Below are positions 19,254 through 36,367 of a stretch of 64,000 nucleotides of DNA, piece by piece. Within the stretch, counting starts at the first letter, position 1; each line of letters starts with the position of its first letter. The stretch is from Octopus sinensis (taxonomy: Eukaryota): positions 160,270,001-160,334,000 of the forward strand of contig NC_042997.1 of assembly GCF_006345805.1 (NCBI RefSeq), written 5' to 3'. The position numbers and the translations under genes were made by a program. The notes under the pieces are model-generated. The model saw only the letters and a list, made by a program, of their open reading frames with translations, was not told where the DNA came from and did no database searches.

Positions 19254-19492
19254 CTACGACGGAATATCACGAATTTCATATGGGATTATGCAAAGATCTT
19301 AGCAAGAAAGTCTTTGTATGGCAGGATGGAGAAGCACTTACATATTCTCAATGGGGACCTACAGAACCCTCGAATCATGGTGGGATTGAAGACTGCGGTA
19401 GCTTTAATCCCTACATCAATTATAGATGGAATGATATTGGTTGCCACGTCCTGAACAGTGGGACACAAATATGCGAGATAGTTGTTCGATAA
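19254..19492 (+). CDS. Lectin copy A, exon 3 (terminal): CTLD carbohydrate-recognition half with EPS and WND motifs
   Basis: TTTTCAG acceptor. Reads HMGL...FVWQDG..LTYSQW..TEPSN.GG.EDC...WNDIGC...ICE, TAA ending 19492. The three exons total 768 nt = 255 aa plus stop. Confidence 0.92.
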
Positions 19493-19625
19493 ATGTGAGG
19501 TAAAACGAAACGTAATTCACACAAATGCAAGCACACACACACAAAATACACACATACATACTCATACATCCACCCACACTGTATATATATATATATATAT
19601 ATATATATATATATATATAAATATA

Positions 19626-19796
19626 AAGGGCATTACTATACATAAATGCCTCACGCTAGGAGGGACTCTTAAAGTCAAAGCTACCGTAATAAACACATTG
19701 TACCGAACGCCGCGTTCGGTACAATGCGTTTATTATGGTAGCTTTGACCTTAAGACTCCCTCCTAGCGTGAGGCATTTATGTATAGTAATGCCCTT
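19626..19796. mobile_element. 171-bp near-perfect palindrome (fold-back MITE-like) 134 bp after the copy A stop
   Basis: 85-bp arms around C19711 with 4 mismatches, inside a TA tract; absent from the homologous region of copy B. Confidence 0.88.
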
Positions 19797-20692
19797 AATA
19801 TAAATAAATATATCTAAAGGGAATAATTAATAATTTCTTCCCTTATGAGGTTTTTCACGCTAACTACATGATAAATTCTTATAAAGATTTCATACTATTG
19901 TAAAATTGTATATATATATATATACATACACACATATACACTCATGCGCGCGCGCACACACACAAATATAATGTTAACTTTGGTTGTGATTGGTCGGGAA
20001 TTTATAATTGATTTCACGTCTTTTGTTGCTATTAGTAATAAACCAGACGGGGGCACATAACCTACATACTAATGGAGATAGAAGTTTGAAAACAAATCTT
20101 AAACGAAATTCATCGTGGAGAAAACCCTTCTTGTTGAAGTGGAGTTATTTCTCATTGACCAGTTCTAGTCGTGTCCGAACATGTCCGTTTATGTACGATT
20201 TCCGTTCACTAGTCAGCAGGCAGGGCATTCGAATTTTTCTCATAAAGGCACCAATTAAGCATCTTACTTTTAAAATTTGTGAACCTATGACGTTCCAAAA
20301 TTCAAAATGTGTTTTTATTCGGTCCCTTCATGTGAAATAAATTGTGTTGAGAGCACGGAATTCTCCACTTGATGACTACTGAACGAAAATCGTATATAAA
20401 CTGACCCAATTTATACACAAGCGGAAGTGGTCAAAGGGGAATAAATCCGTAGGACCTAGAAGAGATTTTGCTTCGAAGAATATCGTTTCAGACATTTTGT
20501 CACAATCCGGGCCGACTCACAGTGTATTTTTAGTTCCATTACTAAAATGGTTCTCTGCTTCAAACTAGGAAATCTGATGTTTCACCAATAATGTTAAAAA
20601 CAGCAATACACGTGAAACCAATGGTAACTTTCCCACCAGTCATAACCAACGACTACACTAAATATAATTCCTCAAATCTCTTTCAGAGTGTG

Positions 20693-20792
20693 NNNNNNNN
20701 NNNNNNNNNNNNNNNNNNNNNNNNNNNNNNNNNNNNNNNNNNNNNNNNNNNNNNNNNNNNNNNNNNNNNNNNNNNNNNNNNNNNNNNNNNNN
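20693..20792. other. Assembly gap (100 N)
   Basis: Run of exactly 100 N, the usual placeholder for a gap of unknown size. Confidence 0.99.
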
Positions 20793-21599
20793 CTCGAGAT
20801 GAGGCCAGAAAGCTCAATATATTAGATTCATACCATTTGAAGTCGATAGGCAAATGAGTGAACTACCAAATGGGCTAGAGAAAAATTTTGGGGCTATCTC
20901 TTTATGTAGGGGTTGAAGAGTGTATAAATAGTAGTAGGATAAAACTAGTGCTAAAGTAAAACAGGAATTGCCAATGTGTCTAGAAAACAAATAGTACTTA
21001 TGATATCGTAAACAGAGCAAATAAATATTTATCCAAAAGCAAACCCGTAGAGCTTTTACAATGGTGTACATACTAAAATTTTCTAGAGACTAAACACCTG
21101 TTATCCGGAATGGAAATGACCAAAGTACTGCAATCTCTACAAATGATCAAGTATATTTAAACCAAGGACAAGGTAAGAACGTTGCAATAGTTGACGTAGG
21201 TAAAGAAGAAAAATGAAGCAGTAACTAAAAATGTGTGGGGGAGACTATGTCATAAGTAGCAAGAGGCCGGTTATGCTAGCCAAAAATCGGCTGCGAGCTG
21301 ATACAGTTTAATACTGGATGTTCCGGTCGCTGATCTCTTATATACAACCACTGTATAACACTATCAGCTAGAAGGCCAATTTTCTCTTAACATGTACGGG
21401 CAGTGGATACTTGCCATTGATGGCGCTGAAAAACCCAGTAGAAATCCAGATTTTGAAACATCAGCACCTACTGAACGAGTTTCGCCTGTCGCTGTTATAT
21501 ATTTGTTCTGATTTAAAAACTATACATATATGTCAGATGCTTTCTCCAGACGAAAATGCAGAGAGCTGGTGAAATGTAAAATACATTTGTTCGATACGC

Positions 21600-22250
21600 T
21601 ACGCAATGTAAAATGGAGCCTGCATTTCGATGGTGAACATTGATGGAAGTGAATATCAAGCAGTTGTCATCAAGACTGAAACAAGTGAAATCAAGCTGGC
21701 TGCTCTGAAGCTGTGTGATGGCAAGGCTGAGATCATTGCAGAAGGACTGAAAAGCATCTTGGACGAATTTCATTTATGGGGCGCAATCCGAATGATTATT
21801 GCTGATACAGTGAGTGTGAATACAGGACGAAAGAGGGGGCTAGTGGCTAGACTGCAGAGAGTGTTCTTGAGCAAAGGCTATGACAAGCCACAATTCATGA
21901 GCTGCCAGCATCATGTATTGGACATAATTCAGCGCGTTGTTATGGACGAGGAGCTAGCAGGCGCAAGCAATTCACCCAACATCTAATATTTTTTGTCAAA
22001 TAACTCAAGGCTCCTTCCAGAATGGAACTGATGTTATTGAAGATCAAGGTAGCTGGGGAGATATTATGAAGTTTCTGTTCCACTTAACCCATGCCAAGAA
22101 AACGTGACCTGCCTTTCATCAAGTTTTAAAAATTTCGAACATCAGTAATGGCAGATGGAATTCGCTAGCAATATTAACCCTTCTTGCAATTTTTTCTCAT
22201 GCCACATGTGAGAGAAAGATTGCAGATGGTCTGCCACTTCATCTAATATA
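21600..22250 (+). pseudogene. DDE transposase relic, hAT-superfamily-like
   Basis: HFDG, IIADTVSVNTG..G and SCQHHVLD (CxxH-type) motifs; stops and frameshifts. TIRs not identified. Confidence 0.55.
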
Positions 22251-34115: not shown

Positions 34116-34466
34116 TAAGTCTATGAGGGTTGATTATAACATACCCATGATAATGTACAAATATATGCATATATTTGCATGTGAGCACAGTTAAATATGT
34201 GTATATATATCTTTGCATAACTTTTTTTCTATTTTTGGTTTCTGATTCTTAGCTTATAATTATATAGCATGATTTATCGCCCCAGAATTCCATAAGTAAA
34301 TACCCAAAGCAGTCTTCATAGAAACCACATAATAAGTAAGGGATTACTAATAACAATTCAGATGCAATCTGGCTTTATCAAGTATATTGAAATAAAGGTT
34401 CTCAATATATATGTATAAACACTCTAATAAAGTATAAAGATAATAAAATAAAATGGAGAAAAATAA

Positions 34467-34854
34467 ATAGATGCTTGATTCATTTTATTTGTATCAAAAT
34501 GGAAAAGTAATGCAAAGTAAAAGTGATACATGTAAGAATAAGGATAAAAGAAAACGGATCAACAAAGCAACCAAAAAATATCCTCTCAAAATCCTACACA
34601 TGTTTCAATCCGACAGCATGTTTGAATCATCAACATTCAAACGATTGTAGATGTAAGAAAGCATATATTGCCGGGTATCTCCAAGGAAACGTAAGTATAT
34701 TTTCCGGGCTTGAATTACGTAATAACTAATTTCAGGACTGTATTTTGAAACTGGTTGATGTGTTGATCCGGTTTTTTTTATCCTTAATCTTATAAGTATC
34801 ACTTTTTGCATTACGTTTCCATTGTGATACAAATAAGATGCACCAAGTATCTAT
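34467..34854. repeat. Diverged about 105-bp inverted repeat enclosing a decayed minus-strand hammerhead
   Basis: 34467-34573 vs 34752-34854. The spacer on minus reads CC-TTGGAGA..CCGGCA...TGTCGGATT-GAAA-CATGTG-TA-GG. Confidence 0.7.
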
Positions 34855-34869
34855 AATATTTTTTCTTTT

Positions 34870-35110
34870 ATCTATCTATCTATCTATCTATCTATCTATA
34901 TCTATCTATCTATCTATCATCTATCTATCTATCTATATCTATCTATCTATCTATCTATCTATCTATCTATCTATCTATCTATCTATCTATCTATCTATCT
35001 AACTATCTATCTATCTATCTATCTATCTATCTATCTATCTATCTATCTATATATATATATATATATATATATATATATATATATATATATATATATATAT
35101 ATATATATAT
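34870..35110. repeat. (TATC)n followed by (TA)n microsatellite
   Basis: Direct reading. Representative of many tracts, e.g. (ATT)n 8780-8908 and (TAA)n 59572-59680. Confidence 0.97.
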
Positions 35111-36134
35111 AATCGGTCGCTTGTTCATTAGTACCAATATGCAAACTCTGAAAGATATTTAAAAGAATTATGTTTTGCGTAGTCGCTGGATATGGCCGGC
35201 CAAAACGTTACAATTAGTTTCACGTGTATTACCGTTCTTAATATAAGTGACACATCAGATTTGCTGGTTTGAAGCAGGGAACCACTTTACTAACGGAACT
35301 AAAAATACAGTATGAGTCAGTCTGGATTGTAACAAAAAACCTGAAACGACATTCTTCGAAGGAAAATCTTGTGGGTGCTACGGATTCATTCCCCCTTGAC
35401 CATTTCCACTTGTATTTTAATTGTGTCAGTTCATATACGGTTTTTCATCAGTTGTCAGCAAGCGGAGAATTCCATGCTTTCAATGCAAATCTTTCGACAT
35501 AAGAGGACAAAATAAAAACATTTTTTGAATTTCAGAAGTCCCTAGGTGAGTATTCACAATTTTGAAAGTGAGATGCTCTTATGAGAAAATTACTAGCTCA
35601 AGAGATGGAATTCCTTGCCTACTGACTTGTGAACGGAAATCGTACATAAACCTACTCGTCCGGACACAGCTAAAACTGGTCAATGAGAAATAGCTCCACT
35701 TCACCAAGAAGGGTTTTTCCCCTCGAAGAATTTCGTTTAAGACTTTTTTTTTCAAACTTCTATCTCCATTAGTAAGGACGTTATGTGCCTCCATCTGGTT
35801 TATCGCTTGTGTTACTAATAGCAACAAGAGATGTGAAACCAATGGTAAATTTCTGACCAATCACAACCAAAGTTAACATTACATTTGTGTGTGCATGTGT
35901 GGGTTTGTGAGTGTGTGTTCGTGCGTTCGTGTGTGTGTACGTGCGCGCGTGTGTGTATATATGTATATATATATGTATGTATATATATATATCTATATAT
36001 AAATATTTATATATATACAGTGTGTGTGCGTGTATGTGTATGTGTGTGTGTGAATGTGTGTGTGTGTGCGTGCGTGTGTGTGTGTGTGTGTGTGTGTGTG
36101 TGTGTGTGGAATTACGTTTCGTTCTGCCAAACAT

Positions 36135-36367
36135 TTATAGAACAACTATCTCGCATATTTGCATCCCTATGTTCGGGTTGCGACAAGGAACGTCATTCCA
36201 TCCGAAATCTGCGGTTGGCACAAGGCTAACACAGTGTTCATTTCCACCAGAGGGATTAGGATAAAACCAACGAGAATATGTTAGTGCTTCTCCAGTTTGC
36301 CATACAAAGACGTTCTTGTTAAGATCTCTACTTGATCCAATATAATACTGACCTGACTGCGCCGCAG
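36135..36367 (-). CDS. Lectin copy B, terminal exon: CTLD with NPS and WND motifs
   Basis: TTTTCAG acceptor on minus strand. Reads YIGS...FVWQTG..LTYSRW..PNPSGG.EHC...WNDVPC...ICE, then stop. Colinear with copy A exon 3 apart from a 6-nt in-frame indel. Confidence 0.88.

Follow-up and report, generated by a model that had tools for sequence, protein, structure and literature searches.

Two C-type lectin genes in a 64,000-nt stretch of the Octopus sinensis genome (hereafter the window; NCBI RefSeq assembly GCF_006345805.1, contig NC_042997.1, positions 160,270,001 to 160,334,000 of the forward strand) belong to a large octopus tandem cluster of predicted secreted proteins that join a PAN-like domain to a C-type lectin domain (CTLD), and codon models give strong evidence that their last exon, exon 3, where the sugar-binding surface probably lies, is positively selected around an invariant WND motif. 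The two paralogous three-exon genes lie tail to tail, gene A on the + strand (4880-19492, 255 residues) and gene B on the - strand (253 residues), running from 36135 to an exon 1 that lies 7 kb past the window end. Both have open frames and are intact signal peptide-PAN-like-C-type lectin genes. A preliminary description, made from the letters of the window, had proposed a diversifying recognition or venom lectin family under positive selection; the two ends of the interval it marked, 19254 and 36367, are the exon-3 acceptors of genes A and B.

Searches of the genome returned 40, 36 and 32 matches for exons 1, 2 and 3, and 136 stretches were fetched, in which we found 40 exon-1, 36 exon-2 and 33 exon-3 regions. 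Twenty of the 33 exon-3 regions fall into one cluster (C1:159.60-160.94 Mb, 1.35 Mb), a count that leaves out about 0.32 Mb between matches, and the open frame is kept in 32 of the 33. Filters on start, splice sites and frame dropped 12/40 exon-1, 9/36 exon-2 and 1/33 exon-3 regions, some of these being pattern misses, not broken genes; 28, 27 and 32 intact exons 1, 2 and 3 passed, of which 21, 15 and 22 are unique, identical sequences being counted once. Joining by hand gave 23 gene models, 18 of them with three intact exons, and over the 153 pairs of these 18 complete models the residues differ by 25%, 27% and 46% in exons 1, 2 and 3. Other copies are damaged, by frameshifts, stops, lost starts or reduction to a lone exon 1 (G000:C1:160229105-160238206, 160509290, 160847889 and 159892594-160023993), which we read as birth-and-death turnover. 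Members outside the main cluster (G000:C1:147380600-147394736 and C8:80047181-80104795) are in places at least 99% identical to cluster copies and reflect either recent dispersal or assembly misplacement. An assembly gap of 100 N lies 1.2 kb 3' of gene A (20693-20792); the cluster stretch 159.58-160.36 Mb holds four further gaps, three of them upstream of copies without an exon 1.

Selection was assessed with codon models written for this analysis (F3x4, IQ-TREE trees, naive empirical Bayes), using for exon 3 the 22 unique sequences and 72 gap-free codons. Model M2a improves on M1a by a doubled log-likelihood difference (2dL) of 56.8, with a ratio of replacement to silent divergence (omega) of 3.97 on 24% of sites; the comparison of M8 with M7, which the preliminary description had recommended, gives 2dL 53.6, and that of M8 with M8a 50.1. 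The signal is significant in seven of seven subsets (padded gaps, chromosome copies only, lost-cysteine copies out, two clade halves, and the exon halves on their own trees), with P from 2e-3 to 2e-9, while 22 neutral simulations with three discordant segment trees reached a 2dL of at most 7.2. Site models for exon 1 gave no significant signal in the full set (P=0.07), and neither exon 1 nor exon 2 gave one in the 18-gene set. Over the same 18 genes the tree length in replacement divergence (dN) is 2.87 for exon 3 against 0.95 and 1.06 for exons 1 and 2, and that in silent divergence (dS) 1.80 against 1.33 and 1.64. Four young clades carry 108 replacement and 15 silent changes, where the expected replacement share is 0.79 (P=0.01). 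Exon 3 of an A-type copy differs from that of a relative at C1:160.13 Mb at 17.5% of replacement and 11.7% of silent sites, the flanks by 5.8% upstream and 6.8% downstream; and model P0015 is 100/97/78% identical to its best O. vulgaris match in exons 1/2/3. Diversification seems concentrated in the young, expanding clades.

Posterior probabilities above 0.95 are reached at 13 of the 72 exon-3 sites (178, 181, 183, 211-213, 226, 229-231, 239, 242 and 243 in gene A numbering). These lie just ahead of the equivalent of the EPN motif, on both sides of WND (in the hairpin that precedes it and directly behind it), and in the helix 2 link at the exon 2/3 junction, a placement made by alignment to mannose-receptor CRD4 and mannose-binding protein and not by distance, because the long loop and the PAN part of the structural model are of low confidence. 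The last codons of exon 2, at the end of helix 2 (13790-13812 and 37938-37960), are also highly variable and pass without a break into the variable beginning of exon 3.

By profile search, exons 2 and 3 together form one CTLD (Lectin_C, 55.1 and 55.4 bits for models P0002 and P0004, cut-off 22.6), and exon 3 alone scores 32 bits in A and 36.9 bits in B. Exon 1 matches PAN_1 at 16.7-17.7 bits, under the cut-off of 21.4, with cysteines at 66, 70, 76 and 88. A structure predicted from a 51-row alignment is usable for the CTLD only: its predicted local distance difference test score (pLDDT) is mostly 70-93 over residues 121-255, the long loop excepted, and about 50 in the PAN part, for which the nearest ESM Atlas clusters are PAN_1 + Lectin_C. 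Foldseek places the predicted CTLD closest to mannose-receptor CRD4 (E 1.3e-9). Among the 22 unique exon-3 sequences WND is invariant, C240 and C250 are present in all and C224 in 20, and position 222 is always E or Q; the EPN-equivalent reads RPD in 10, NPS in 7, EPS in 2, and GPD, QPS or SPD in one each, the register of gene B hinging on gap placement. We take WND, position 222 and the EPN-equivalent to form calcium site 2, where these lectins may bind calcium. Each of the two proteins has a single hydrophobic stretch (residues 15-27) and none further on, so both are predicted to be secreted; in the 255-residue protein with its one CTLD, no 13-residue hydropathy window exceeds 1.5 beyond residue 40, as a membrane anchor would.

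The A-B pair was compared in its own right. The preliminary counts for exon 3 proved exact: 69 differences over 228 nt of aligned codons (69.7% identity), 38 of 76 residues identical, one in-frame 6-nt indel, and a silent change in 8 of the 38 conserved codons. So did the retention of structural Cys, Trp and WND residues in both copies, and an exon 2 estimated at about 89% identity measures 90.4% (exon 1, 91.1%). The claim that exon 3 is more diverged than the introns holds too, though the excess is smaller than was described. Alignable sequence differs at 314/2789 positions in intron 1 (88.7% identity), 191/1232 in intron 2 (84.5%) and 121/730 in the 3' flank (83.4%). It includes a distal block of gene A intron 2 (18473..19120, +, homologous to B 37199-36551, 85.0%), a second intron 2 block (17723..18185, +, to B 37711-37187, 83.4%), an intron 1 block (13064..13568, +, to B 40523-40022, 93.0%) and the 3' flank as far as the 100-N gap (19971..20692, +, to B 35879-35142, 83.4%). 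Codon-aligned exon 3 exceeds intron 2 at P=4e-7. With one gapped DNA aligner throughout, exon 3 (53/227 differences, 76.7% identity) is still the more diverged, against both intron 2 (190/1201, 84.2%, P=0.007) and the 3' flank (117/705, 83.4%, P=0.03), and does not fall to their level as it might have done once properly aligned. The short intron samples first quoted were unrepresentative: 90% for intron 2 is the top of the 170-nt windows of the distal block (80.6-90.0%), and 97% for intron 1 the top of the 190-nt windows of a block ranging over 90.5-96.8%, the block at 13064..13568 being its likely source. Intron identity is itself biased upward, because only about 1.2 kb of the 5.4-kb intron 2 of gene A can be aligned. 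Divergence climbs toward exon 3, being higher in intron 2 and the 3' flank than in intron 1 (P=4e-6).

Within A-B exon 3, dN is 0.36 (bootstrap 0.26-0.50) and dS 0.49 (0.26-0.86), and we rejected the pairwise ratio as proof of selection. It is the family site models and the young clades that bear out positive selection, not the pair; a ratio well below 1, named beforehand as a sign against it, appears in neither, the pair being indistinguishable from 1 and the selected class of the family lying at about 4. The silent sites are informative in another way. The exon-3 dS, 0.41-0.57 across estimates, stands against an intron divergence of 0.17-0.19, and silent sites have changed at 8/35 in exon 3 against 10/139 in exons 1-2 (P=0.012); the 8 of 38 silently changed codons, first taken as few, are in fact above the 12/145 of exons 1 and 2 (P=0.04). 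Since its silent sites are more diverged than the introns and exons 1-2, the ancestry of exon 3 would be older than that of its flanks, which points to selection opposing gene conversion, a signature described in the accessible part of a study of red/green opsin exon 5 as a peak of divergence that selection maintains against gene conversion (PMC3924837). Base composition differs somewhat between exon 3 and the other exons (CpG observed/expected 0.63 against 0.82 and 1.06; GC at third codon positions 0.39 against 0.38 and 0.31), and CpG may contribute to the silent excess.

Exchange among copies, proposed at the outset as gene conversion, is supported by incompatible partitions of exon 3 and its upstream sequence. 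In six B-type copies, all 11 variable exon-3 sites change a residue (the junction codon included), and the repeat-masked intron has no variable site between -970 and -46. Further upstream, between -1866 and -970, B falls with the copy on C9487 at 20 sites; at five exon-3 sites it falls with the copy at C1:159741, and B and C1:159741 part again at the -46 site and at the sites from +531 onward. The five exon-3 sites and the 20 upstream sites are incompatible by the four-gamete criterion, all four combinations are likewise present among A-type copies, and trees of the separate exons disagree. B-type exon 2-3 modules also lie at G000:C1:160077281 (-), C9487:6249 (+) and C8344:25550 (+). The exon 1 upstream, about 25-33 kb away, is A-like in B and C8344 and of a distant clade in the other two; possibly these modules have been shuffled onto different exons 1, the links resting on proximity only. 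The profile of gene conversion is thus present, in an exon that is more diverged than its flanks even at silent sites and in exchange among copies, where assembly chimeras may play a part. Gene conversion or unequal crossing over has likely swapped exon 3 among copies. Templated micro-conversion from other clades was considered as the source of the B-type variants and rejected: no other clade has either form at 5/9 variable codons, and at 8/9 at least one form is missing from all of them, so most look like new mutations.

In contigs from public runs, exon 3 carries replacement variants while the intron 2 sequence next to it is nearly identical, and one variant is absent from our extracted exons. 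Run X3 shows 8 differences in a 341-nt stretch over exon 3 against 0/459, 0/209 and 0/126 in intron 2, and run X1 11/122, 4/122 and 4/148 against 1/271 and 0/174; among the X1 exon-3 sites listed, 11/11 are in codons that change a residue. These contigs bear neither for nor against expression of gene B: among seven runs no splice joint is seen, those of X1 and X4 read like DNA since they run on into introns, and X6 and X14 give no exon coverage; nor was any RNA data set listed for exon 3 of gene B.

The two genes have the same plan, with GT-AG, phase 1 introns in both. Exon 1 of gene A (4880..5228, +), a 99% match to database model P0002, encodes a predicted signal peptide and a PAN/apple-like domain with a 4-Cys core (PAN_1 16.9 bits); exon 2 (13633..13812, +; AG/GT, phase 1) encodes the first half of the CTLD and exon 3 (19254..19492, +) the second (EPS...E..WND) and the stop codon, and holds the positively selected sites. 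Exon 3 of gene B (36135..36367, -; NPS...E..WND and stop codon) is 6 nt shorter. Its exon 2 (37938..38117, -) was recognized by splice signals and profile match, and its exon 1 lies beyond the window (G000:C1:160340979-160341327, -), across an intron 1 of 33 kb rich in transposon pieces, of which 38118..64000 (-) is within the window. With frame and splice sites intact, gene B shows no sign at the sequence level of being a pseudogene, a possibility raised earlier.

The window also holds mobile elements. Two mariner-type transposons with terminal inverted repeats (32825-34124, +, and 38372-39667, -) are 94% identical; the transposase frame of the first (32990-34042) is open over 350 codons and matches Transposase_1 and HTH_48, and the second, inside intron 1 of gene B, has a shorter open frame. 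PIF1 helicase fragments, Helitron-like, lie between the genes (25414-26600), and intron 1 of gene B contains a reverse-transcriptase frame (42087-43525, +) with a weak RVT_1 match. A 660-codon open frame without a Pfam match (60473-62455, +) overlaps repeats common to 40527-41764. Long inverted repeats with arms 77-100% identical (520-883, 27269-28417, 28939-29713 and 30744-31720) are probably non-autonomous transposons.

Strong sequence homologs of A and B are all Octopus models or unnamed exon-1 fragments; for the PAN exon, sequence comparison adds only weak generic PAN repeats to these. The models are uncharacterised, from O. sinensis (XP_036361367.1, of A type; XP_036354758.1, in which exons 2-3 are of B type; XP_029654262.2) and O. 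bimaculoides (XP_014774124-7, XP_052827404.1 and XP_014787715.1). They resemble A and B in three-exon splicing and in length (253-257 residues) and bear automatic names only (macrophage mannose receptor 1-like and others), and most cluster copies have no returned protein. Mannose-receptor CRD4 and mannose-binding protein A are the best matches in sequence and fold, their EPN/E/WND aligning with EPS/E222/WND of gene A. Identity to these is about 30%, however, and the octopus proteins have a single CTLD, neither membrane anchor nor collagen, and a non-canonical EPN-equivalent that varies between copies; despite the database name they are unlike the mannose receptor family, with its many CTLDs and its anchor.

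The PAN + C-type lectin architecture occurs in other molluscs, as judged from predicted proteins: ESM Atlas clusters of 69-88 members have similar domains and size (feature score 0.96-0.97), and Biomphalaria LG11L gene models 41 and 42 form a PAN/apple + C-type lectin pair built like A and B. Lectin families that have expanded in tandem under positive selection are already known from invertebrates. As far as the accessible text of their report goes, the Biomphalaria PAN/apple-C-lectin pair sits at an association peak for schistosome resistance (PMC13712769). The octopus locus is like the opsin system, on the available part of that study, in having one exon above the flanking introns in divergence and exchanged flanks (PMC3924837); it differs in its at least 20 copies and its continuing replacement change, where the opsin pair has two fixed forms. 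The accessible part of a haemocyte transcriptome report for O. vulgaris lists few lectins and does not name the present family (PMC4199593). No description of the cluster was found in the literature within reach, in which subscription papers, figures and preprint supplements were not visible.

Several observations weigh against a positively selected family of exchanging sugar-binding lectins. A number of copies are 98-99.5% alike over kilobases and adjoin assembly gaps, so that alleles or uncollapsed haplotypes may be among them and mosaics may be chimeras; the 3' end of exon 2 of gene B and its mosaic were not seen in contigs of four public runs, and gene B itself may therefore be a chimera of the assembly. 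The site models were implemented by us, use naive empirical Bayes and lack a term for multi-nucleotide changes. In the full set exon 2 is itself weakly significant (2dL 10.7, P=0.005, 2% of sites), which makes its contrast with exon 3 less than absolute, and the maximum-likelihood omega of A-B exon 3 is 0.70. Best matches in O. bimaculoides are 87/88/87, 82/84/82, 77/70/76, 82/70/72 and 93/86/79% identical in exons 1/2/3, exon 3 being clearly the most diverged in one of the five; with so little excess the older lineages look conserved. Canonical EPN or QPD occurs in none of the 22 exon-3 sequences, so the ligand is perhaps no sugar. The Biomphalaria pair, finally, consists of candidates only in the part of the report available (PMC13712769).

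We favour, with moderate confidence, the explanation that the family works as a recognition repertoire, its proteins binding the variable surface glycans of microbes or parasites. The same evolution could instead serve reproduction or the recognition of self and non-self, whether in the egg coat, in secretions of the oviduct or spermatophore, or in the binding of sperm to egg; this we rank second and think unlikely. Gamete-recognition genes evolve with rapid amino-acid change, as this family does in its young clades and against O. vulgaris (P0015, above), and octopus egg tethers do use CTLDs, in octovafibrin; that protein, in the accessible part of its description, is a 135-kDa EGF-repeat fibre (PMC10336842), an architecture other than the present one, and many divergent paralogs in one genome would be expected of a repertoire sooner than of a lock-and-key pair. 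The third possibility, an improbable one, is that these are venom or salivary lectins whose diversification is aimed at prey targets. Small, predicted secreted, Cys-rich tandem duplicates with accelerated exon evolution do recall the C-type lectin-like proteins of habu venom, whose clusters are reported, in the part of that study available, to be duplicated with accelerated coding evolution (PMC6062510). Two database models carry the automatic name lectoxin-Lio3-like, but such names are similarity labels, and sister models are named mannose receptor, perlucin and LPS-binding protein. To our knowledge snake venom C-type lectin-like proteins have no PAN-like domain; snake venom lectins rank low among solved structures, the same architecture recurs in other mollusc clusters, and no paper listed in a search on octopus posterior salivary gland lectins concerns this family, judged by its title and the start of its abstract. 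The venom option of the preliminary description thus gains no support, the homologs being uncharacterised octopus gene models.

An account with no adaptive cause, in which the CTLD loops are relaxed, the introns are constrained or their alignment biased, and the assembly contributes artefacts, we hold no more probable than venom, and it is already disfavoured. It could draw on the pairwise omega, on the elevation of silent sites as well, on broken and haplotype-like copies, and on an intron identity taken from alignable blocks only, with a modest excess when compared like for like. Relaxation cannot yield an omega near 4, however, nearly neutral models are rejected, and contigs of other runs repeat the exon-3 replacement variation beside near-invariant introns. 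Least probable of all is a structural, mucus or skin matrix lectin of perlucin type, diversifying to tune adhesion or the control of surface microbes. One O. bimaculoides model is named perlucin-like, and one mussel subfamily of small secreted C-type lectins is mucosal, with expression chiefly in gill and digestive gland, in the accessible part of a survey (PMC10140915); but strong positive selection is not expected of a purely structural role, and the microbe-control version merges with the recognition of microbial or parasite glycans.

Under that leading explanation, the tandem copies would share a PAN-like + C-type lectin scaffold, each keeping the fold and the WND motif while changing the rim of the binding pocket and hence, presumably, the ligand. 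Exchange would keep exons 1-2 and the introns alike among copies and selection would preserve the exon-3 differences; this would account for the divergence of A-B exon 3 exceeding that of the flanks even at silent sites. A bolder version, which we regard as doubtful, is a hypervariable germline recognition locus of megabase size, in which ligand-binding exon-3 cassettes under strong diversifying selection are shuffled onto common exon 1-2 scaffolds and individuals differ in repertoire. On that version cephalopods, in which C-type lectins are reported to be very few, would have their own equivalent of the diversified lectins known from snails and bivalves. The at least 20 copies of the cluster, few of them returned as annotated proteins, stand against the very small cephalopod repertoires given in the available text of the survey (PMC10140915). 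The tissue of expression would decide between immune, reproductive and venom biology. The locus is a natural example of one exon in which selection opposes gene conversion, and, with a selection signature clear from a single genome, it offers a candidate receptor family with named sites for cephalopod immunology and aquaculture.

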